The notes under the pieces are model-generated. The model was not told the DNA's origin. It saw only the letters and a list, made by a program, of their open reading frames with translations, and did not search any database. Positions 1-33,409 of a stretch of DNA of 64,000 bases are shown piece by piece (position 1 is the first letter of the stretch; each line of letters opens with the position of its first letter). The position numbers and the translations under genes were made by a program. Source of the DNA: an uncultured Bifidobacterium sp. (GTDB lineage: Bacteria > Verrucomicrobiota > Verrucomicrobiia > Limisphaerales > JADLHS01); the NCBI GenBank assembly GCA_964539515.1, contig CAZIJO010000001.1:33172-97171 (forward strand), written 5' to 3'.

Positions 1-168
1 TTCGAGTCCGTCGTTGCCGGCGTGGAGTCCTTCCACGAAAACGGCAAGGCGTGCGGTCCGGCGGATTGCACGGCGGGCGGGCTGGACGCGGCGGTGGATG
101 CTCAAGGGCGGATTTATATCCTGGACCTGGTCACCAGCGATGTGCGCGTGATGAAACCCAAGGCATGA
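1..168 (+). CDS. 3' end of a beta-propeller (NHL-like) repeat protein, truncated by the window edge
   Basis: Frame 1 is open from nt 1 to TGA 166-168 (...DAQGRIYILDLVTSDVRVMKPKA*). GRIYILD...RV resembles a terminal NHL-type repeat. The stop overlaps the next ATG (ATGA at 165-168). Confidence 0.45.
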   Translation, partial: FESVVAGVESFHENGKACGPADCTAGGLDAAVDAQGRIYILDLVTSDVRVMKPKA

Positions 169-740
169 GCGAAAAGCAAAAATCCGATTCGCCGACCACG
201 CGCCGCACCTTCCTGCGGAACGGCGCCCGAATCGCGGCGATGACCGGGCTTGGCGCGCTGGCCGGCGTGGTGGCCAGCCGGAGTACGGCCGAGGGTTGGG
301 TCTGGCAGATTGATCCGCAGAAATGCCTCCGCTGCGGCAATTGCGCCACGAAGTGCGTGCTCGAACAGTCCGCGGTGAAGTGTGTCCATGCGTTCGCCAT
401 GTGCGGCTATTGCAATCTCTGCACTGGTTACTTCGAGCCGGAGCCGAACGCGCTCACGACCGCGGCCGAGAACCAACTCTGCCCGACGGGGGCCATCCAA
501 CGTTCGTTCGTGGAGGATCCGTATTACGAATATCGAATTGACGAAAAGCTTTGCATCGGTTGCGCCAAATGCGTCGAGGGTTGCAATCGCTTCGGCAACG
601 GTTCCCTGTTCCTGCAAATCCGTCACGACCGCTGTGTGCATTGCAACGAGTGCGCCATCGCCCGCACCTGTCCCGGCGACGCCTTCCGCCGCGTCCCGGT
701 CAGCCAGCCGTATCTGCTCAAGACCACCCACGCGCACTGA
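165..740 (+). CDS. Tat-exported multi-cluster 4Fe-4S ferredoxin (NapG-like)
   Basis: ATG 165. Twin-arginine signal SPTTRRTFLRNGARIAAMTGLGALAG. Ferredoxin Cys motifs CLRCGNCATKC, CGYCNLC..CPTGA, CIGCAKCVEGC, CVHCNECAIARTCP. The longer GTG-51 form in the ORF track is Gly/Arg-rich and overlaps the upstream CDS. Confidence 0.85.
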   Translation: MSEKQKSDSPTTRRTFLRNGARIAAMTGLGALAGVVASRSTAEGWVWQIDPQKCLRCGNCATKCVLEQSAVKCVHAFAMCGYCNLCTGYFEPEPNALTTAAENQLCPTGAIQRSFVEDPYYEYRIDEKLCIGCAKCVEGCNRFGNGSLFLQIRHDRCVHCNECAIARTCPGDAFRRVPVSQPYLLKTTHAH

Positions 741-742
741 CC

Positions 743-2161
743 ATGCATGATTTACGATTTACGATTTGTGGTTTACGCGCCGCACATCCAACCACGCGTA
801 AATCGTACATCGTAAATCGTAAACTTCTTCGGCTGCTCCTGGGTGTGGTCACGCTAGCCACGTTACCGCTGGTGAACCTGTCCTCCCTCGCGGAATCCCG
901 CTTCCCGCCGCCGGATTTCAGCGAAACGAACCATCAGCTGCCCTTCACCACCACACCGCCGGCCCGGGCAGAATGGTTGCAATACCTTGACGTTGCCGTG
1001 CTGGCCGGCGGCTTGATCGTTGCGGTCTGGTTGATCTACCAACGCCGATCGCGCCGCGGGCTCTTCTGGCTTTCGCTGTTTTCGCTCGCGTATTTCGGTT
1101 TCTGGCGATTGGGTTGCATCTGCGCCATTGGCGCGCCGCAAAACATCATTCTGGGTCTGTTCGATGCCGGCTACACGGTGCCGCTGACGGTTATCGCGTT
1201 TTTTGCCCTGCCGCTGGTCGTCGCCCTGTTCGCCGGCCGCGCGTTCTGCGCCGGCGTCTGTCCGCATGGGGCGTTGCAGGATTTGTTGCTGATCAAACCG
1301 GTCAAAGTCCCCGCCTGGTTGGAACACGCCCTTGGGGTTTTGCCGTTCATCTTTCTCGGTTTCGGTCTCTCCTTTGCCGCCACCGGCACGGGTTTTCCGA
1401 TCTGCCGCTACGATCCGATCGTGCCGGTTTTCCGGCTGAACGGTCCGGGCCTGCTCATCGCTTTGGCGGCATTCACGCTCATCCTGGGAATGTTTGTGGG
1501 GCGACCCTACTGCCGCTTCCTTTGTCCCTATGGCGCCCTGCTCAAACTCGCCGCGCTCGCCTCGAAATGGCGCGTGCGTGTCACCCCCGACCTCTGCACC
1601 CAATGCCAGCTCTGCGCGAACGCCTGTCCGTTTGGGGCGATGCGCGAGCCGTCGTCCGGCACCGTCGAACCCAAACGGCTCGGGCCCGAACGCCGCCGGC
1701 TCGGCGGGCTCGTCCTGCTGGTGCCGGTGCTGATCGCGGGCGGCGCCGGGCTGGGCAGCCAGCTGGCCGTGCCGGTTTCGAAATTGAATCCGACCGTCGA
1801 ACTCGCCGAGCGCCACCTCCGCCAGCAAGAAAAACGCATGGATTACGGCGTGATGACGCCCGAGACGCTCTCCCTTCAGCGTGCCGAAAACGATCCCGGG
1901 GCGTTGCTGAAATCCGCCACCGACCTGCGCCGTCGCTTCGGGTGGGCGTGTATCGCTTTTGGTGGCTGGGTCGGCTTGGTGTTGGGCGTGAAGCTGGTGA
2001 GTCTCTCAGTGCGGACCTTGCGCACGGATTTCGAGCCGGACCGGGGAGCCTGTTTCGCTTGCGCCCGGTGTTTTCGTTCTTGTCCGCAGGAACTGGTGCG
2101 CGCGGGACTGATGCCCGCGAATGAGCTGCCCCCGGCGACAGCGACGGGCGTGACAACATGA
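743..2161 (+). CDS. Membrane polyferredoxin of the NapH/MauN/NosR type
   Basis: Two CX3CP motifs in the hydrophobic region (FCAGVCPHGALQD, YCRFLCPYGALLK), CTQCQLCANACP, and a distal CFACARCFRSCP after two more hydrophobic helices. The start is uncertain: ATG 743 puts the heptad palindrome inside codons 3-27. Confidence 0.8.
   Translation: MHDLRFTICGLRAAHPTTRKSYIVNRKLLRLLLGVVTLATLPLVNLSSLAESRFPPPDFSETNHQLPFTTTPPARAEWLQYLDVAVLAGGLIVAVWLIYQRRSRRGLFWLSLFSLAYFGFWRLGCICAIGAPQNIILGLFDAGYTVPLTVIAFFALPLVVALFAGRAFCAGVCPHGALQDLLLIKPVKVPAWLEHALGVLPFIFLGFGLSFAATGTGFPICRYDPIVPVFRLNGPGLLIALAAFTLILGMFVGRPYCRFLCPYGALLKLAALASKWRVRVTPDLCTQCQLCANACPFGAMREPSSGTVEPKRLGPERRRLGGLVLLVPVLIAGGAGLGSQLAVPVSKLNPTVELAERHLRQQEKRMDYGVMTPETLSLQRAENDPGALLKSATDLRRRFGWACIAFGGWVGLVLGVKLVSLSVRTLRTDFEPDRGACFACARCFRSCPQELVRAGLMPANELPPATATGVTT
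749..823. repeat. Imperfect ~30-bp inverted repeat built from 7-bp units (TTTACGA x4 / TCGTAAA x4) around a 16-nt spacer
   Basis: Left arm is GATTTACGATTTACGATTTGTGGTTTACGCG. Right arm is CGCGTAAATCGTACATCGTAAATCGTAAAC. Aligning left arm against the reverse complement of the right arm by hand gives 25 of 30 matches. Confidence 0.8.
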
Positions 2162-4005
2162 CAAATCCTTCCGCCAAACTGAATCCAGCCGATTTGGACG
2201 GCGGCGGGAAGCCCAGCGCCACGCAGCCTCCAGCAAACCCGGCATCGCCCGAAAAAGTGGTGTCGTTGCTGCGCCCTGCTACCATCGTCCGAAATGTCGG
2301 CGCGCTTGCGCGTGCCGCCTGGATGGCAGCTGCCTTTTGTCTGCTGCTCTGCGCGGCGATGCTTTATCAACACCGGATCGCAGCCGAGCATGATCCGTGG
2401 AAATCGCCTCAGCTGCTGGCGCTGAAGGCGAAACTGCGGGCGGCCCCGGCGGATGAAGCCCTGCGGGATGAAATCCGTCAGCTCGATCTCAAATTTCGCC
2501 AGCGCTATTTCCGCCGTCTGGCGCTCAATGTCACCGGCGGCTGGCTGCTGGTCGCCGGGGTCGGAGTGCTGTTGGTGGCCGCAAGATCAGCCGGGCGCCT
2601 GACCCAACCGCTCCCCCGGCCGCAGCGCCGGACAGACGCCCAATCGCTTGCCTGGCTGGCGGCGTCCCGGGCGCGGTGGGGGGTGACCGGCATCGGCGCG
2701 GTCGTCGTCACGGGTTTGCTGGCACTGGCGTGTACGAGCCAATCCCCGTTGTCGGATCGCGCTGCGGACCCCAACCAGCTGCTCGCCGGCGGTGCAGGCG
2801 CGGCCGCCGATGTTCCGTCCCTGGCCGAGTTCCTGGCCAACTGGCCGAGCTTCCGGGGCGCCGACGGCGGCGGTGCGCGGAAAGCCGATTGGATCCTTAA
2901 TTTCGACGCGGCGTCCGGTGGGTCTGTCGTCTGGAAATCGCCGGTCCCCGCGCCCGGTTTCAATTCGCCGGTCGTTTGGAGTAATCGGATCTTTATTTCC
3001 GGCGGTGACGTGAAGAAGCGCGAAGTGTTTGCCTACGACGCCGGGGACGGAAAACTGCTCTGGCAACGCGCCGTCGCGAATGTGCCCGGCAGTCCGGCCA
3101 CTTTGCCCGAGATTCCCGATGCCACCGGTTACGCTGCCCCAACGATGGCCACGGATGGTCGGCGGGCCTTTGTGCTGTTTGCCAACGGCGATCTTGCGGC
3201 ATTCAAGTTCGACGGAATGCTCGCCTGGGCGAAGCACATCGGCGTGCCGAAGAACATGTATGGCCATGCCAGTTCGCTGGCCATCGCGCCGGGCAAACTC
3301 ATTGTGCAACTCGATCAGGATGAGGGCGCGCCTGGTGGTTCGAAGCTACTGGCTTTCGACTGCGCGACGGGACGCCAGCTTTGGGAACGCCCCAAGCCCA
3401 CACACGGTTCCTGGGCGTCACCCATTATCGTCGAAGCGGCGGGCAAGTCCCAGATCATCACGCTGGCGCTGCCGTTCGTAATGAGTTCGTCCCTCGCCGA
3501 CGGCAATGAGTTGTGGCGGGCGGAACTGATGGAAGGCGAAATCACGCCCTCGCCCGTTTTTGCGGGGGGATGGCTGATCGTGGTCAATCCGGGGAACAAA
3601 CTGTTCGCGCTTCGTCCGGACGGCGCCGGTGACGTCTCCAAATCCCACGTCGGGTGGACAGCCGAGGACAGCATTCCCGATGTAACCAGTCCGGTCAGCA
3701 ACGGGGAATTGGTTTTTACCGTGACGAGTGGCGGGGTGCTAACGTGTTTTGACCTCAAGGACGGAAAACTAATCTGGCAAAAGGAATTGGAGCTGGAGGT
3801 GCAATCGTCCCCGGCCATTATCGGCAGCCAGTTGTTTGTGCTCGGCACCAAGGGTCAGGCCGTCCTGATGAGCGTGGGCCGGGAATTCAAGGAAGTGGGC
3901 CGGGTCAAGTTTGACGACACGTTCCACGCCAGCCCGGCGATGGCGAACAACCACCTGTATCTGCGCGGGGCGACCAACCTGTGGTGTCTGGGGGAAAAGA
4001 AATGA
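2158..4005 (+). CDS. Membrane-anchored PQQ-like/BamB-family beta-propeller repeat protein
   Basis: ATGA overlap with the previous stop. Three hydrophobic helices lie in the first ~230 aa. Repeated propeller blades follow with ...G(K/R/N)xLW(Q/E/R)... motifs (LLWQRAV, RQLWERPK, NELWRAEL, KLIWQKEL). Confidence 0.85.
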   Translation: MTNPSAKLNPADLDGGGKPSATQPPANPASPEKVVSLLRPATIVRNVGALARAAWMAAAFCLLLCAAMLYQHRIAAEHDPWKSPQLLALKAKLRAAPADEALRDEIRQLDLKFRQRYFRRLALNVTGGWLLVAGVGVLLVAARSAGRLTQPLPRPQRRTDAQSLAWLAASRARWGVTGIGAVVVTGLLALACTSQSPLSDRAADPNQLLAGGAGAAADVPSLAEFLANWPSFRGADGGGARKADWILNFDAASGGSVVWKSPVPAPGFNSPVVWSNRIFISGGDVKKREVFAYDAGDGKLLWQRAVANVPGSPATLPEIPDATGYAAPTMATDGRRAFVLFANGDLAAFKFDGMLAWAKHIGVPKNMYGHASSLAIAPGKLIVQLDQDEGAPGGSKLLAFDCATGRQLWERPKPTHGSWASPIIVEAAGKSQIITLALPFVMSSSLADGNELWRAELMEGEITPSPVFAGGWLIVVNPGNKLFALRPDGAGDVSKSHVGWTAEDSIPDVTSPVSNGELVFTVTSGGVLTCFDLKDGKLIWQKELELEVQSSPAIIGSQLFVLGTKGQAVLMSVGREFKEVGRVKFDDTFHASPAMANNHLYLRGATNLWCLGEKK

Positions 4006-4032
4006 GCGATCCGATCCTGGTTGAATCATCAA

Positions 4033-6678
4033 ATGCCCATTGACCTGACCATTGCGGACGAGGCCGTGGCACGCATAGGCCGCAAGCCCGAAGCGTTGAT
4101 CCCGATCTTGCAAGCGTTGCAGGAGCGTTACGGCTATCTGCCGGAGGCGGCGTTGCGTCGCGTCTGCGAGACAACGCAGATCAAGCCCGCAGCGGTCATG
4201 GGCGTGGCATCGTTCTATGACATGTTCCGGATGCAGCCCACCGGCAAACATGTGGTGCGGGTGTGCCGGGGGACGGCCTGTCACGTGGCCGGCGCGGAGC
4301 GCGTGGAGGACGCGCTGCGGCGGCATCTGCAAATTCCCAATGACGCCGATACCGATCGCGACGGGCAGTTCACCATCGAACAGGTCGCGTGCCTGGGCAC
4401 ATGCACCCTCGCACCGGTGGTACGCATTGGCGAATCCACGATGGGTTATGCCACCGCCGAAAAAGTGCCCGAGCTGATGCGGGATTTTCTCGCGAGCCAG
4501 GCCATGGCAACGACCGTGAAGTCCACCGAAGGCAAGGGCGGCAATGGGGGTGCCGGCATCGCCGAAATCCACGTCGGGCTCGGCTCGTGTTGCATGGCGA
4601 AGGGGAGCGACCGTCTGTTTCATGCCCTGCGCGAGAGCGCGGCGACGGGGGGCGTAAACGTGGTGGTGAAGCGGGTGGGGTGCGTGGGGATGTGCCATCG
4701 GACGCCGATGGTTGAGGTCGCGACGCCGGGGGGCAAAGGTGAGTTTTACGCCGGGCTTTCGCCGGAGCAGGCCCGGGCGTTGGTCCAACGGCATTTCAAA
4801 CCGCGCGGTTTGGTCCAGCGCGCGAGTCGGCTTTGGACGCGCGTTTTGGATGGCTTGTTACTCGACGACACGGGCGAGCAACGCAAGGTGCAGCATTTCT
4901 CGATGAGCAAGCGCGACCCGGCGGTGCGGGCGTTTCTGGACCGGCAGGTCCACATCGCCACGGAACATTTCGGACGGCTGGACCCGTTGGATTTGGACGA
5001 GTATTTGGCGAACGATGGATTTGCCGCGTTGGCGAAATGTTTGGGTAGTGATTTGAACAACCGCCCTCACCCCAACCCTCTCCCCCAAGGGAGGGGGAAT
5101 GGTTCGCCAGCGTTTGAAAAGGCGAAAATCGGAGATGACCCAGGGGTGTTGGAGCGATCCGTAGACGGACGACTGCTGTTCCCTCTCCCTGGGGGAGAGG
5201 GTCAGGGTGAGGGCGAGCGTGGCTCGCAAAGTGAAATTGCTCAGAGCATCCTGCCATCGGCAGTTACGCGGGAAGCCATCATCTCAACGATCGAGAAATC
5301 CGGGTTGCGCGGGCGGGGTGGGGCGGGATTTCCCTCCGGACAAAAATGGCGCGTCGTTGCCCAGCAAGCCGGTGATACAAAATATGTGATCTGCAACGGC
5401 GACGAGGGCGATCCCGGGGCCTTCATGGACCGGATGATACTCGAATCATTTCCCTACCGGGTCATTGAAGGGCTGGCGATTGCGGCGGTGGCGGTCGGAG
5501 CGCGTGAAGGGATTTTCTACATCCGTCACGAGTATCCGCTGGCGGTGAAGCGGGTGCGCGCAGCCATTGCCGAATTGGAGCAACGGGGCTGGTTGGGGGA
5601 AAGACTGCTGGGGGTGGGAGCGTTCCTAACCCCATCCTCTTCCCCATCTGATGGAGAGCGGGTGGCGAAGCCGGGTGAGGGGTTGGCGGCTGGCTACCCG
5701 CTCAAGCTCTCGGTTTTCGAGGGCGCCGGCGCGTTTGTTTGCGGCGAAGAGACGGCGTTGATCGCTTCCATCGAAGGCGAGCGTGGCATGCCGAAGTTGC
5801 GCCCGCCGTTTCCAGCGCAGGAAGGACTCTGGGACAAGCCGACGCTCATCAATAATGTCGAGACGCTGGCCATGGTGCCGTGGATCCTGCGGAACGGGGC
5901 GGAGCAGTTTGCCGCCATCGGTACCGCCAAGAGCAAAGGCACGAAGGTTTTTGCCCTGGCGGGCAAGATCCGCCGCGGCGGCCTCATTGAAGTCCCGATG
6001 GGGACAACGATTCGCGAGATCGTGGAGGAAATTGGTGGCGGCGCGGCGGAGGGGCGGCGGTTCAAGGCGGTCCAGATCGGCGGGCCGAGCGGGGGCTGCG
6101 TCCCGGCGCGGCTCGCGGACACCCCGGTGGATTTTGAATCGTTGCGCGAAGTGGGTGCGATCATGGGCAGCGGCGGACTGGTGGTGCTCGACGACACCAG
6201 CTGCATGGTGGACATCGCGCGGTATTTCCTCCAGTTCACGCAGGATCAATCCTGCGGCAAATGCACGTTCTGTCGCATCGGGACCAAACGGATGCTCGAC
6301 ATCCTCGAGCGCCTTTGCACCGGCAAAGCGACCCGCTCCCACCTCGAAGAACTCGAACGGCTCGCGGCCCAGGTCGGGGCCGGCAGCTTGTGCGGGCTGG
6401 GTAAAACCGCCCCCAATCCGGTGCTGACGACGCTCCGTTATTTCCGCGAAGAGTACGAAGCGCACCTGCAAGGCCGTTGTCCCGCGCGTAAATGCACCGC
6501 GCTGATCCATTACACGATCAACGCCGATTGCACCGGTTGCACCCTCTGCGCGCAGCAGTGTCCGGTGGAAGCGATCCCGATGCTGCCGTACGCCCGGCAC
6601 GTGATTGATGACGCCAAGTGTACCCGATGCGACACATGTCGGCTGGTGTGTCCGCATAATGCCGTGGAGTTGAAATGA
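4033..6678 (+). CDS. NuoE-NuoF fusion flavoprotein (HydC/HydB- or HoxE/HoxF-like NAD(P)H dehydrogenase module) with C-terminal 2x[4Fe-4S] ferredoxin
   Basis: NuoE-type 2Fe-2S (CRGTACHVAG...CLGTCTLAPV). A second thioredoxin-like 2Fe-2S (GSCCMAKG...CVGMCHRTP). NuoF motifs GLRGRGGAGFPSGQKW, ICNGDEGDPGAFMDR, CGKCTFCRIG. Terminal CTGCTLCAQQCP / CTRCDTCRLVCP. The ORF track starts at TTG 4021; ATG 4033 is preferred but not proven. Confidence 0.9.
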   Translation: MPIDLTIADEAVARIGRKPEALIPILQALQERYGYLPEAALRRVCETTQIKPAAVMGVASFYDMFRMQPTGKHVVRVCRGTACHVAGAERVEDALRRHLQIPNDADTDRDGQFTIEQVACLGTCTLAPVVRIGESTMGYATAEKVPELMRDFLASQAMATTVKSTEGKGGNGGAGIAEIHVGLGSCCMAKGSDRLFHALRESAATGGVNVVVKRVGCVGMCHRTPMVEVATPGGKGEFYAGLSPEQARALVQRHFKPRGLVQRASRLWTRVLDGLLLDDTGEQRKVQHFSMSKRDPAVRAFLDRQVHIATEHFGRLDPLDLDEYLANDGFAALAKCLGSDLNNRPHPNPLPQGRGNGSPAFEKAKIGDDPGVLERSVDGRLLFPLPGGEGQGEGERGSQSEIAQSILPSAVTREAIISTIEKSGLRGRGGAGFPSGQKWRVVAQQAGDTKYVICNGDEGDPGAFMDRMILESFPYRVIEGLAIAAVAVGAREGIFYIRHEYPLAVKRVRAAIAELEQRGWLGERLLGVGAFLTPSSSPSDGERVAKPGEGLAAGYPLKLSVFEGAGAFVCGEETALIASIEGERGMPKLRPPFPAQEGLWDKPTLINNVETLAMVPWILRNGAEQFAAIGTAKSKGTKVFALAGKIRRGGLIEVPMGTTIREIVEEIGGGAAEGRRFKAVQIGGPSGGCVPARLADTPVDFESLREVGAIMGSGGLVVLDDTSCMVDIARYFLQFTQDQSCGKCTFCRIGTKRMLDILERLCTGKATRSHLEELERLAAQVGAGSLCGLGKTAPNPVLTTLRYFREEYEAHLQGRCPARKCTALIHYTINADCTGCTLCAQQCPVEAIPMLPYARHVIDDAKCTRCDTCRLVCPHNAVELK
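5063..5214. repeat. REP-doublet/MITE-like palindromic element lying in-frame inside the NuoEF gene
   Basis: Arms are GCCCTCACCCCAACCCTCTCCCCCAAGGGAGGGGG (5063-5097) and CCCTCTCCCTGGGGGAGAGGGTCAGGGTGAGGGC (5181-5214). They are reverse complements at ~31/35 positions. The right arm itself folds as CCCTCTCCC-TGG-GGGAGAGGG. Translated, the element gives PHPNPLPQGRGN...PLPGGEGQGEGE. Confidence 0.8.
5625..5685. repeat. Second short GC-rich palindromic repeat unit in-frame inside the NuoEF gene
   Basis: CCTAACCCC...GGGGTTGG termini pair with one bulge. There is an internal CCATCTGATGG palindrome. The element translates to LTPSSSPSDGERVAKPGEGL and interrupts the conserved segment just upstream of GAGAFVCGEETAL. 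Confidence 0.6.
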
Positions 6679-8264
6679 GCGACCCGTTCACCATCAGCAT
6701 CGATCGCCGGCCGGTTCAAGTCCGACCGGGCGAAAGCGTGTTGACCGCGGCGCGCCGGCTGGCCATTGATATTCCGACCCTCTGCTATCTGGAAAAGTGC
6801 GGGCCGCTCAACACCTGCCAGGTCTGCCTGGTGAAGCTTAACGGCAAGCTGGTGCCGTCCTGCGGGACAAAGGTCGCGCCCGGAATGGTGGTGGAGAGTG
6901 AGACGGAGGAAGTGCACGAGGCGCGGCGCACGGCGTTGGAGCTTTTGTTCAGCGATCATGTGGGCGATTGCCTGTCACCCTGTCACCGGTTGTGCCCCCT
7001 GATGCTGAACATTCCGCAAATGTTGCGGCACATTGAAGCGGAACGATTGGACGACGCGATCGCCACGGTACGGCAGGCTTTGCCGCTGGCAGGCGTGCTG
7101 GGGCGGTTGTGTCACCATCCATGTGAACAGGGCTGTCGGCGGGGCAACTGGGATTCGCCCGCCGCGATCCGCGACATGGAACGCTTTGTCACCGATCAGG
7201 ATCTCAAAAATGCCGGGCCCTACGTGCCGGGGACCAAGCCCGCCTCGGGGAAGACGGTGGTCATCATTGGCGCGGGACCGGCAGGGTTGGCGGCCGCCTA
7301 TTATCTCTCGCGCGAGGGACATGGTGTCACCGTGGTGGATCGTCAGCCGCGCGCCGGAGGCACTTTGCGGGAGGTGAGTGAAAGCCAGCTGCCCGGTTCC
7401 GTTTTGGAAGCGGAACTCGCCCTGCTTGCGCGGCAGGTCGTTGATTTCAAGCTGGGAGTGGAACTTGGCCAGCACGTCACGGTGGAGGGGCTGGCGCGCG
7501 GGTTTGGGGCGGTATTAGTGGCGACGGGAGAGCTGGGGCAGGAAGATGGTACCCGGATGGGCTTGCCGATGGCGGGGAAATTTGTCAAAGCGGATCCCAA
7601 CACCTGCCAGACTTTGATCGAGAAGGTCTTCGCTGCCGGCAGTGTGGTGCGGCCGCAGAAACAACTCGTGAAAGCCATGGCCGAAGGACGGGCGGCGGCG
7701 GAGTGCGTGCACCGGTTTTTGAGCGGCCAGCCCGTGCGGCGACCGGAAAAGCCCTTCTCCAGCATCATGGGCAAGGTGGATCCGGGCGAGCTGAAGGCGT
7801 TTCTCCGCGCGACCCACGCGGGCGGGAGCGTGTCGCCCTGCGACCGTTGTGCCGGGCACACGCGGCAGGAAGCGGCCCTGGAGTCGTCGCGTTGTCTGCA
7901 CTGCGACTGCCGTTCCTCCGGCAATTGCGTGTTGCAGCACTACGCGCAGACGTATGGGGCGAACGCGAGCCGTTTCCGCACGGAGCGCCGGGAGTTTGAC
8001 CAGCAGCTGCAACCGGGCGGCATCATTTTCGAACCGGGCAAATGCATCCTGTGCGGCATCTGCGTGAAGCTCACCGAAATGGCGGCCGAGCCGCTGGGCT
8101 TGACCTTCATCGGGCGCGGCTTTGATGTGAAGCTGAGCGCGCCATTTAGTCAGGCCATCGAGGCAGGGCTGCAGCAGGTGGCGGCGGAGTGTGTGCAGCA
8201 TTGCCCGACGGGCGCGCTGGTTTTCAAGAACGGGAAACCGAATTCCGCCGCCGGGGAAAAATGA
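6675..8264 (+). CDS. Iron-sulfur flavoprotein: NuoG-type N-terminal 2Fe-2S + GltD-like 4Fe-4S/FAD domain + C-terminal 4Fe-4S region
   Basis: ATGA overlap with the NuoEF stop. CYLEKCGPLNTCQVCLV (2Fe-2S). HHPCEQGCRRG (GltD-type cluster). A single dinucleotide fold VVIIGAGPAGLAAAYYL, then VFAAGS...AMAEGRAAA. Terminal CLHCDC..C and CILCGICVKL...CP motifs. Confidence 0.8.
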   Translation: MSDPFTISIDRRPVQVRPGESVLTAARRLAIDIPTLCYLEKCGPLNTCQVCLVKLNGKLVPSCGTKVAPGMVVESETEEVHEARRTALELLFSDHVGDCLSPCHRLCPLMLNIPQMLRHIEAERLDDAIATVRQALPLAGVLGRLCHHPCEQGCRRGNWDSPAAIRDMERFVTDQDLKNAGPYVPGTKPASGKTVVIIGAGPAGLAAAYYLSREGHGVTVVDRQPRAGGTLREVSESQLPGSVLEAELALLARQVVDFKLGVELGQHVTVEGLARGFGAVLVATGELGQEDGTRMGLPMAGKFVKADPNTCQTLIEKVFAAGSVVRPQKQLVKAMAEGRAAAECVHRFLSGQPVRRPEKPFSSIMGKVDPGELKAFLRATHAGGSVSPCDRCAGHTRQEAALESSRCLHCDCRSSGNCVLQHYAQTYGANASRFRTERREFDQQLQPGGIIFEPGKCILCGICVKLTEMAAEPLGLTFIGRGFDVKLSAPFSQAIEAGLQQVAAECVQHCPTGALVFKNGKPNSAAGEK

Positions 8265-8352
8265 GGCGGCCGGCCGGCCCGTTACGGATACCGGGGGTTC
8301 AGCCGCCGGAATCTCACTTTCCTTGTGGTGGCGAATCGTGTTAATTGCGCCC

Positions 8353-9237
8353 ATGAAAATGAACTTGAAAAATGCGGCCGTCGGGCTGGTCGCCGTGCTG
8401 CTGACCGCCGGTTGCCGTACGCCCGCCGGGCGAAGCGCGGACGCCGGCCCGCAGGGCAGTTTCACCGGAACGTTGGGCCTGCAACTCTACAGTCTGCGCG
8501 ATCAATTCGCGAAAGATGTGCCGGGGACGGTCAAATTGGTGCACGAGTTCGGCTTTCGCGAGGTGGAACTGGCCGGCACTTACGGGATGGTGCCGGAAGA
8601 ATTGCGGGCTTTGCTGGCAGTCAATCACCTGAACGCAGTTGCGGGGCATTTCAGTTACGAACGTTTTCGGGATGACCCGGCGGGCGTCGCCAAGGAAGCC
8701 CAGGCCCTCGGCTTGGATTACGCCGGAGTTGCGTGGATTCCGCACGACGGCCCCCTCACGGCGGCCAAGGTGCGCGAGACCGCGCAGGTTTTCAACCGCG
8801 CCGGCGAGGTGCTGGCCCGCCACGGCATCAAGTTTTACTACCACAATCACGGTTACGAATTCGTGCCGTATGAGGATGGCACTTTGTTCGACCTGCTGGT
8901 CCGCGAAACCAAGCCGGAGTTTGTCAGTTTTCAGATGGACGTGGTTTGGGTGGTGTTCCCCGGTCAGGATCCGGTGAAGTTGCTGGAAAAACACGGCCAC
9001 CGCTGGTCTTCGATGCACGTCAAAGATTTAAGGAAAGGGGTGGCCACTGGCTCGCTGTCCGGCAGCACGGATCCGAAAAACGACGTGGCGGTGGGCAAAG
9101 GGCAGGCGGACTGGCCGGCGCTGCTCCGCGCCGCCAAACAGGCGGGCGTAAAATACTATTTTATTGAGGACGAATCGCCTTCCGTGTTGCAACAGATTCC
9201 AGAGAGCTTGATGTATCTGGAACAGGTTCAGTTTTGA
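8353..9237 (+). CDS. Sugar phosphate isomerase/epimerase (xylose-isomerase-like TIM barrel) with lipoprotein-type signal
   Basis: ATG 8353 gives [21 protein letters not shown] (lipobox). The body (LQLYSLRD..., [28 protein letters not shown]) resembles the AP-endonuclease-2/xylose-isomerase-like TIM family. The upstream part of the track ORF overlaps the previous gene. Confidence 0.75.
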
Positions 9238-33004: not shown

Positions 33005-33409
33005 TCACGTCGGTTGGGTGGGTGGCGGAGGGTTGGCGGCCGCCGAAAGGTCGCCCCATTTCCGGCGCACCAGGTAATCCAGCCCGAGCGCCAGCCCGTT
33101 GCGATGGGGCAGGGTGTAGATAAACCCGGCCAGCAGCCCGGCGGCGAGCACGCAAAACCAGGCGGAACTCGGGATGTAGAGCCGGAAGTAGATGAGAACG
33201 ATCAACGGAAAAATAAACAGGGCCCGGTCGATCGCCACCAGGTAAGCCCACAGATCGCCCTGGTCCTGCAAATACTGCAAGCCGCACTCGGAGCAGTGGT
33301 CGTGGAGTTTAACCCAGCCCCGGAAGATGCGGCCCTTGCCGCAATGGGGACAACGCCGGCGCAGCCCGCGGCCGAGGACGGTTCGTAATTGTGGGATGGG
33401 CTTGTTCAT
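33005..33409 (-). CDS. DUF983-like zinc-ribbon membrane protein
   Basis: [25 protein letters not shown] (CxxC...CxxC), followed by two hydrophobic helices. Confidence 0.7.

Follow-up and report, generated by a model that had tools for sequence, protein, structure and literature searches.

What exchanges electrons with a NapG/NapH-like pair, a ferredoxin and a membrane protein, whose genes lie among those of beta-propellers instead of beside a known reductase gene? The question is raised by the first genes of a 64,000-nucleotide stretch of contig CAZIJO010000001.1 (assembly GCA_964539515.1, forward-strand positions 33,172 to 97,171), deposited as an uncultured Bifidobacterium sp. and placed by GTDB in the Verrucomicrobiota. 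The whole stretch is called the window below, and positions are those of the window. A prediction made from the letters of the window (the original prediction) described four linked open reading frames (ORFs) there and proposed that they encode an uncharacterised periplasmic redox system wired to the quinone pool. The four ORFs, their overlaps, Cys motifs, twin-arginine translocation (Tat) signal and transmembrane (TM) segments are all where it placed them, as judged by translation, motif and hydropathy checks, and the description as an uncharacterised periplasmic redox system holds. The string does not end with the fourth gene, but continues to position 8264, and the operon is one of seven to eight genes of which the four form the front half. 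On balance, and with a little better than even confidence, we read positions 1–8264 as one operon for a haem-free redox complex that would assemble across the cytoplasmic membrane and carry electrons from NADH to a periplasmic reaction.

The genes of the string are all on the forward strand. The window opens with the last 55 codons of an NHL propeller gene (1–168), whose frame 1 translation closes with ...GRIYILDLVTSDVRVMKPKA* and is identical to the C-terminus of the 337-amino-acid protein P0164. An ATGA overlap (165–168) joins this end to the start of the gene for a 191-amino-acid Tat-signal ferredoxin with motifs for four [4Fe-4S] clusters (165–740; identified from its ORF, Pfam Fer4 families and Cys motifs), and a 2-nt gap (741–742) separates the ferredoxin stop from ATG 743 of a 472-amino-acid membrane polyferredoxin of the NapH/NosR superfamily (743–2161; two Fer4_5 matches, motifs and hydropathy). 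A second ATGA overlap (2158–2161) leads into the gene for a 615-amino-acid PQQ_2 (BamB-like) beta-propeller anchored by three TM segments (2158–4005; PQQ_2 at 97 bits and TM segments). From its stop at 4005 there are 15–27 nt to the next gene, depending on whether that gene starts at 4021 or, possibly, at ATG 4033; it encodes an 885-amino-acid BfuC-BfuB (NuoE-NuoF) fusion (4021–6678; Pfam, NCBIfam and PDB relatives), and an ATGA overlap at 6675 joins it to a gene for a truncated, NfnA/StnC-like BfuA of 529 amino acids (6675–8264; Pfam, NCBIfam and alignment to 9bov_A and 8oh5_C). Thus, from 165 to 8264 consecutive genes either overlap by ATGA or are at most 27 nt apart. The first gene of the operon is cut by the window edge, and relatives carry further genes upstream of it. 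A scan for promoters and terminators gave background-level signals.

Do the ferredoxin and the membrane protein belong to the Nap family? The ferredoxin has a Tat motif (TRRTFLR) and 17 Cys, in the motifs CLRCGNCATKC (residue 54), CGYCNLC (80) with a CP at 106, CIGCAKCVEGC (130) and CVHCNECAIARTCP (157). All 17 are at least 90% conserved among 78 sequences and suffice for four [4Fe-4S] clusters, and the protein is a putative periplasmic electron carrier. Its 13 NCBIfam matches at E <= 0.01 include no NapG or MauM model, and the best of them are generic ferredoxin models below their cut-offs. The membrane protein (to which P0001 is 100% identical) is matched twice by Pfam Fer4_5 (PF12801) and has CX3CP motifs at 169 (CAGVCP) and 257 (CRFLCP) and four-Cys motifs at 285 (CTQCQLCANACP) and 437 (CFACARCFRSCP). 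It scores 44.1 bits against TIGR02163 NapH/MauN (cut-off 213.05), 38.5 against PRK09477 NapH (cut-off 234) and 36.3 against the NosR model NF046105 (cut-off 1000). In an alignment of 27 sequences the two CX3CP motifs, which follow TM helices, and the two CxxCxxCxxxCP motifs are invariant, and so are RFPPPDF...H.LP after the first helix, GCICAIG.PQN, and C221 in ICRYDP. The pair therefore keeps the resemblance to NapG/NapH, MauM/MauN and NosR-type modules that was proposed for it, but its family membership is not supported (44.1 against 213 bits for the membrane protein, and no NapG/MauM match for the ferredoxin); to judge from these comparisons the two proteins appear to be distant relatives of NapG/NapH, not orthologues.

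The genes that follow the 615-amino-acid propeller suggest a different electron partner from the one that a Nap-type pair would imply. The NuoE-NuoF fusion comprises a NuoE-like [2Fe-2S] domain, a thioredoxin-like [2Fe-2S] domain, a NuoF core for flavin mononucleotide (FMN) and NADH with its [4Fe-4S] cluster, and a C-terminal 2x[4Fe-4S] domain (Pfam 2Fe-2S_thioredx in two stretches, Complex1_51K, SLBB, NADH_4Fe-4S, and Fer4 at 835–883), and this is the core domain set that defines BfuBC. Its best solved relatives are NfnB (9bov_B), StnB (8oh5_B) and NfnB (9n5u_B) at 645–661 bits, followed by bifurcating HydB. The best solved relatives of BfuA are likewise subunits of NfnABC (9BOV/9BP5, 9N5U) and StnABC (8OH5), at 257–294 bits. 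BfuA has an N-terminal [2Fe-2S] domain, a GltD-type 2x[4Fe-4S] domain, a flavin adenine dinucleotide (FAD) fold, and a NuoG-type His/Cys cluster plus [4Fe-4S]. In the alignment to 9bov_A/8oh5_C, residues 7–286 correspond to 6–287 of the target and residues 281–519 to 430–675; the intervening ~143 residues (9bov_A 288–429, the NADPH Rossmann subdomain) are missing from BfuA, which has a single GxGxxG, and the Fdh-like C-terminal domain is also absent. In NfnA, NADPH binds beside FAD in an NfnL-like domain, and electrons normally enter at this FAD/NADPH site and follow the path FAD-A7-A6-A3-A2-A1-B1 (PMC11829005). Because its NADPH site is missing, the Bfu pair of the window is not a transhydrogenase; rather, it appears from its domains to be a complete BfuBC core with a BfuA that kept its wire and lost its substrate site.

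Is this combination of genes peculiar to the window? When an alignment of the NapH-like protein was scanned against one genome per species, at least 600 stretches matched. At least 439 of these could be confirmed as relatives, and we analysed the 80 best loci (designated by L numbers). To score adjacency, ten queries were run by tblastn against every locus, and a locus was counted only if it had enough flanking sequence. The loci span Verrucomicrobiota, Planctomycetota (Pirellulales, Sedimentisphaerales and Thermoguttaceae), Lentisphaerae and Bacteroidales, and include the cultured Perlabentimonas gracilis. An NHL propeller gene lies upstream of the NapH-like gene in 71/71 loci, the ferredoxin gene is present in 77/78 and the TM-anchored PQQ_2 propeller gene in 70/70; NuoEF adjoins in 58/63, BfuA in 51/56 and an upstream PQQ_2 gene in 40/63, and a regular-expression search found the gene of a small 4-Cys protein in at least 61/71. 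Spacing is operon-like throughout, with median gaps in the relatives of ~19 nt from propeller to NuoE and ~-4 nt from NuoF to BfuA.

The gene context upstream of the window is taken from relatives only. In the close relatives L001–L004, whose NapH-like proteins are 79–86% identical to that of the window, the 5′ to 3′ order is PQQ_2 propeller (329–467 amino acids), small 4-Cys protein, 337-amino-acid NHL protein and ferredoxin, and no nap, nos, mau or ttr genes are found upstream in these four. The original prediction had named two findings that would count against it, a canonical reductase gene immediately upstream and a quartet not conserved as a unit in related genomes, and we find neither: the quartet is a unit across four phyla by the synteny counts above, and the 10 kb upstream in relatives holds the gene for the small Tat-type 4-Cys protein and another PQQ_2 propeller gene. 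All-against-all clustering of ORFs of at least 110 amino acids within 10 kb on either side (84 loci) yielded, once overlapping shadow frames were set aside, no additional family present in more than about 20 loci. The flanking families that do recur (ABC transporter, FtsX, glycosyltransferase and sulfatase) are lineage-specific, each occurring in at most 12 loci. We also note that six records are labelled Bifidobacteriaceae, Bifidobacterium, Rickettsiales or Eubacteriales; their NapH-like genes are 74–83% (L008, L009, L012 and L057) or 44–48% (L076 and L081) identical to the Verrucomicrobiota gene of the window, and these taxonomic labels look unreliable.

The BfuA truncation is also widespread. 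There are 49 short forms, which lack the NADPH subdomain, against 5 long ones, a count from which two apparent ~894-amino-acid forms (Bacteroidales L061 and L065) were set aside as read-through; checked in L065, this form reads through a stop into the next PQQ_2 gene. The long forms, all in Verrucomicrobiota (L022, L031, L033, L034 and L044), are ~690–700 amino acids long, keep the NADPH Rossmann motif VVVVGGGNTAMD and are 36–43% identical to the BfuA of the window. Such forms may preserve the ancestral state, or an Nfn-type subunit may have been recruited independently.

Could the membrane protein nevertheless draw on quinol? If it did, a NapGH-type quinol dehydrogenase would pass electrons from the quinone pool to the periplasmic propellers, and the Bfu genes would be merely co-transcribed or would feed the quinone pool. 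We consider this unlikely. In its favour, the membrane protein is a member of the Fer4_5 superfamily with NapH/MauN, NapH and NosR as its best named matches, the core occurs without adjacent Bfu genes in a small fraction of loci (5/63), and some NapH-like systems are thought to use quinol (PMC8238504). Against this, 44 bits is far under the family cut-off of 213, the ferredoxin has no NapG match and a quinone site is not identifiable from sequence. Moreover, BfuA in most loci is without a substrate-binding domain of its own and therefore needs a partner, and the Bfu genes adjoin the core, at gaps of ~19 nt, in all four phyla. Coupling between the Bfu module and the membrane protein is favoured by three features: the 58/63 adjacency over four phyla, the translational-coupling-type spacing and the loss of the substrate site in 49/54 BfuA sequences. 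With the Bfu module next to the core in so many loci, the case for NADH as electron partner, on its own or together with ferredoxin, is stronger than that for quinol, and a system wired to the quinone pool, as originally proposed, is not supported in that form.

How, then, might electrons cross the membrane? NADH would bind at the FMN of the NuoF-like part of BfuB, possibly with ferredoxin as a second partner, and the C-terminal 2x[4Fe-4S] domain of BfuB would be the counterpart of the domain that serves ferredoxin in solved Bfu enzymes. The Fe-S/FAD chain of BfuA may then pass electrons to the NapH-like polyferredoxin at its cytoplasmic 2x[4Fe-4S] domain, a step that we infer because BfuA is without a substrate site of its own. 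This receiving domain would consist of the two Cys motifs that flank a helical hairpin, close to both CX3CP motifs. The NapH-like protein would carry the electrons to the periplasmic face, where the Tat-exported four-cluster ferredoxin would relay them to the Tat-exported NHL propeller with its GCCNP motif and to the small 4-Cys protein, and the PQQ_2 propellers would have a scaffold or substrate-binding role rather than a catalytic one. NapH-like proteins have been proposed to be modular transmembrane electron-transfer units (PMC8238504). Predictions of membrane-bound Bfu enzymes exist as well, all of them with Nuo or Mbh membrane arms, and 17–18 Bfu clades are without a known third substrate (PMC9304861).

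The build of the NapH-like protein is compatible with this route. It begins with a signal or first helix followed by the conserved RFPPPDF peptide. Two extra helices (~310–346 and 385–422, with hydrophobic stretches at 320–338 and 403–421) lie between the last two four-Cys motifs, which is atypical for NapH; the placing of the second Fe-S motif after two additional TM helices had been remarked on in the original prediction, and hydropathy and a low-confidence AlphaFold model agree with it. Since these two helices would form a hairpin, the split four-Cys motifs can still build one two-cluster ferredoxin fold. Hydropathy, charge and the model agree in placing both CX3CP and both four-Cys motifs on the K/R-rich, presumably cytoplasmic side, and the RFPPPDF peptide, C125, C127 and C221 are predicted to lie on the opposite, periplasmic face. 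Concerning these three Cys, we note that C125 and C127 (in GCICAIG; window ~1115–1123) and C221 (in ICRYDP; ~1403–1405) are invariant and face away from the CX3CP and [4Fe-4S] motifs in the predicted topology; they could be ligands of a periplasm-side metal centre or form a disulfide. To our knowledge nothing comparable has been described for NapH.

What would receive the electrons? The propellers had been called cofactor-less-looking, and for the NHL protein this is wrong: it has a Tat signal, an invariant GCCNP, an invariant H/E/Y/K/R cluster and the small 4-Cys protein as a neighbour in most loci. The Tat motif (SRREFFG in L001–L004) and the GCCNP lie upstream of the window, in the part of the 337-amino-acid P0164 that the window lacks. 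Among 75 sequences the invariant features are the vicinal Cys pair of GCCNP, N-x-G-x-H-x-x-E-x-Y and T-x-E-K-G-x-x-R-x-K. A phmmer search of PDB and an AlphaFold model (mean predicted local distance difference test score, pLDDT, 77.5) compared by Foldseek both indicate a six-bladed propeller; NHL domains are the top Foldseek matches, WD40 propellers and virginiamycin B lyase also match, and the resemblance is generic only. The GCCNP region is the least confident part of the model. The family is large, with 907 representatives at 50% identity clustering (E <= 1e-30).

The small protein, of 80–106 amino acids, combines an RRxFLR motif with a hydrophobic stretch and basic residues, has its Cys spaced as C-x5-6-C-x2-C-x5-C and has no Trp; by analogy, its C-x2-C-x5-C spacing resembles that of WhiB-type [4Fe-4S] proteins. 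In Verrucomicrobiota its gene lies 5′ of the NHL gene; in the other phyla it stands between that gene and the ferredoxin gene. Three proteins of the system thus carry Tat motifs (NHL protein, ferredoxin and small protein), and there is no CxxCH haem motif in any subunit.

The PQQ_2 propellers have conserved positions that are mostly G, W, P or D, and since this conservation is only structural, a role as scaffold or substrate binder is more likely than catalysis. In the 615-amino-acid protein hydrophobic segments at 47–65, 122–140 and 175–193 precede the propeller, and the loop between the first and second carries a conserved motif. An identity as a pyrroloquinoline quinone (PQQ)-dependent dehydrogenase was rejected (TIGR03075 at 32.8 bits against a cut-off of 480; PF01011 aligned only over profile positions 544–585 of 595), and the protein gives no sign of a PQQ-dehydrogenase active site. 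BamB was rejected as well (TIGR03300 at 67.8 against 285.2, PRK11138 at 42.1 against 423), and the three TM helices are unlike the BamB lipoprotein. A Bfu docking site in the N-terminal region was considered too, and was rejected on the grounds that this region is retained in all loci, even those without Bfu genes. Two observations on propeller genes in relatives may be added. Extra PQQ_2 paralogues occur as arrays of four to six upstream of the core in Bacteroidales (L061, L065, L078 and L082) and as one to three genes downstream of BfuA in Planctomycetota (L059, L062, L066, L072, L083 and L084). One 816-amino-acid protein (P0322) is a predicted fusion of a PQQ_2 propeller (~131–382) with a cluster-type NHL propeller (523–813), which hints at physical association of the upstream PQQ_2 protein with the NHL protein, although it may be a gene-calling artefact.

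Might the ferredoxin and membrane protein instead serve maturation? In a MauM/MauN-type system they would supply the electrons with which a cofactor or cross-link derived from Cys is formed, either in the propeller or in the small peptide. The relatives do have genes for a small Cys-rich Tat protein and a ~337-amino-acid propeller side by side, and after them those for a Tat ferredoxin and a membrane protein with CX3CP motifs. This order recalls mauA/mauB with mauM/mauN, and qhpC/qhpB, from the loci of quinoproteins that pair a small subunit with a propeller (methylamine dehydrogenase and quinohaemoprotein amine dehydrogenase). The small protein, however, has no Trp, which is needed for both tryptophan tryptophylquinone (TTQ) and cysteine tryptophylquinone (CTQ), neither protein of the pair has a family-level MauM/MauN match, and genes for radical-SAM, MauG-type dihaem and protease proteins are not recurrent nearby in 84 loci. 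A dedicated NADH module would also be unusual for a maturation system. Amine-dehydrogenase (TTQ/CTQ) maturation was rejected specifically, given the missing Trp and the lack of recurrent radical-SAM or MauG genes, and we regard maturation of any kind as very improbable.

Returning to transfer from NADH to the periplasm, what kind of reaction would it drive? In solved Bfu relatives the reactions of NADH and ferredoxin are linked to a third couple, whose potential is low and intermediate (PMC9304861, PMC11829005), which makes a low-potential periplasmic reaction plausible here; such a couple is to be expected if, by analogy, the module bifurcates or confurcates as its relatives do. The reading also supposes a reductase activity in the periplasm. 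In its most specific form the proposal is that the window encodes a membrane-bound Bfu member whose third substrate is extracytoplasmic, with electrons from NADH (and from ferredoxin) passing through the haem-free NapH-type polyferredoxin to a new class of Tat-exported NHL redox enzyme that uses the vicinal Cys pair and/or the small Fe-S partner; we put this forward tentatively, as a possibility that is rather doubtful as it stands.

Electrons might also flow the other way. The NHL protein would then oxidise a low-potential periplasmic donor and pass electrons via the ferredoxin and the NapH-like protein to the Bfu module, which would bifurcate them to NAD+ and ferredoxin. In favour of this, Bfu enzymes can run in both directions, and several reduce NAD and ferredoxin by oxidising a third substrate (PMC9304861, PMC11829005); NapH-like modules accompany not only reductases but also oxidases, ExaA among them (PMC8238504), and BfuB retains the bifurcating-type N-terminal [2Fe-2S] and C-terminal 2x[4Fe-4S] domains. 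On the other hand, a periplasmic donor near -400 mV is a demanding requirement, and no recognisable dehydrogenase cofactor site is present (no Mo, Ni, haem, flavin or PQQ signature). The computed evidence itself does not tell direction, and overall we think this reversal quite unlikely, a shade more so than the quinol dehydrogenase.

Several points weigh against transfer from NADH to the periplasm as well. Just as it leaves the direction open, the computed evidence does not constrain the substrate. Five of the 63 loci (L054, L067, L071, L075 and L077) have the membrane and periplasmic core without adjacent Bfu genes, and in the five loci with a long BfuA the full NADPH domain means that the enzyme there could act alone as a transhydrogenase. 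The loci were picked by similarity to the NapH-like protein, and the synteny figures are hence conditional on that subfamily. The topology of this protein rests on hydropathy and charge because its AlphaFold model is poor (pLDDT 61.5) and has no Foldseek match at E <= 0.001. Finally, we know of no cofactor that bridges the bilayer in NapH-type proteins.

How does the system compare with known ones? Like NapG/NapH, MauM/MauN and clade II NosG/NosH, it has adjacent genes for a Tat-exported four-cluster ferredoxin and a membrane protein with two CX3CP and two CxxCxxCxxxCP motifs, and it is haem-free. Unlike in those systems, scores here are far under the family cut-offs, the ferredoxin has no NapG/MauM match, and no nap, mau or nos genes lie nearby. 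Relative to NapGH, the membrane protein adds a signal or first helix, the RFPPPDF peptide that we place in the periplasm, and the two-helix hairpin that splits the Fe-S domain, and a Bfu NADH module replaces or supplements a quinol link.

In the NapH-like systems surveyed by Meheust et al. (2021; PMC8238504), among them NosR and PceC, a PF12801 membrane Fe-S protein likewise serves as a modular connection from cytosolic or membrane electron pools to extracytosolic oxidoreductases, and the partners include the propeller enzymes ExaA and NirS. Those systems are defined by an ApbE-flavinylated extracytosolic FMN-binding domain, in whose place the Tat ferredoxin stands here; no protein of the cluster matches an FMN-binding domain, and no other recurrent family lies near the core in 84 loci. 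The propellers also differ from those partners, being NHL and PQQ_2 proteins without known cofactors.

NfnABC and StnABC (9BOV, 9BP5, 8OH5 and 9N5U) share with the window complete BfuC and BfuB domain sets and a BfuA that aligns over the N-terminal domain, the FAD fold and the NuoG-type clusters (257–661 bits across the subunits). In the window, unlike in those enzymes, BfuC and BfuB are fused, BfuA is without the NADPH subdomain and the Fdh-like domain, and the operon includes membrane and Tat proteins. Finally, the complex proposed here would, like Rnf and the predicted Nuo-Bfu and Mbh-Bfu complexes, join NADH and ferredoxin pools at the membrane by Fe-S clusters and flavin, and window proteins show weak RnfB and RnfC domain similarities. 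It differs from these in having no RnfA/D/E/G, Nuo or Mbh membrane subunits and no evidence of ion translocation, and in that its apparent output is to periplasmic proteins. A search of a paper library found no description of this gene combination.

Why does the locus matter? How low-potential electrons reach the periplasm where neither haems nor quinones take part is poorly understood, and what the cytoplasmic Fe-S domain of NapH/NosR-type proteins does has been unclear ever since their first description; an adjoining, complete NADH-oxidising Bfu module is an obvious partner for that domain and opens the question to experiment. For one of the Bfu clades without a known third substrate (PMC9304861), the cluster also suggests a possible function. 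The system is common (907 NHL clusters at 50% identity and at least 439 species-level NapH-like matches), its carriers are environmentally important Verrucomicrobiota, Planctomycetota, Lentisphaerae and Bacteroidales, and the cultured P. gracilis makes it experimentally accessible. If the proposal is true, a Bfu enzyme with an extracytoplasmic substrate would be a new way to power low-potential periplasmic chemistry in bacteria of the Planctomycetota-Verrucomicrobiota-Chlamydiota (PVC) group and in Bacteroidales.

Two repeat elements interrupt the string. The first, at 749–824, is an inverted repeat of TTTACGA heptamers, which match on both strands and occur only there in the 64 kb; it forms a hairpin with a stem of ~30 bp (RNA fold -33.9 kcal/mol, z = -4.25). 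The distance from the ferredoxin stop to the RFPPPDF codons is 158 nt in the window against 62–80 nt in most relatives, and if ATG 743 is used the element is translated as ..DLRFTICGLR...RKSYIVNRK.., within an N-terminal extension. TTTACGA elements lie at the same junction in L004, L006, L011 and L022 and nowhere else in those loci; most relatives have none, and their junction is ~80 nt shorter. The hairpin is probably an inserted repeat element, and since it lies inside the extension the true start codon of the NapH-like protein is uncertain.

The second, at 5062–5215 in the NuoE-NuoF linker, resembles a miniature inverted-repeat transposable element (MITE). Its 29-nt terminal inverted repeats (5062–5090 and 5187–5215) are 90% complementary, and it is an in-frame insertion that encodes ..PHPNPLPQGRGNG...PLPGGEGQGEGER.. 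and is missing from the homologues in L013, L017, L021, L028 and L053. An Rfam whalefall-1 match at 5179–5214 is sub-threshold (23.9 bits against a gathering score of 37). A second in-frame insertion in the same gene, at ~5650–5720, encodes LTPSSSPSDGERVAKPGEGL, and related genomes have similar NuoE-NuoF insertions at the same or other sites, or none. These insertions look like a palindromic mobile element tolerated within coding DNA, and the 5062–5215 element is not part of the redox function.

Following the operon, an ORF at 8191–9237 (start probably near 8353) encodes a xylose-isomerase-like TIM-barrel protein with a lipoprotein-type signal; such a gene is also found 3′ of the operon in the close relative L001 and is not conserved more widely.

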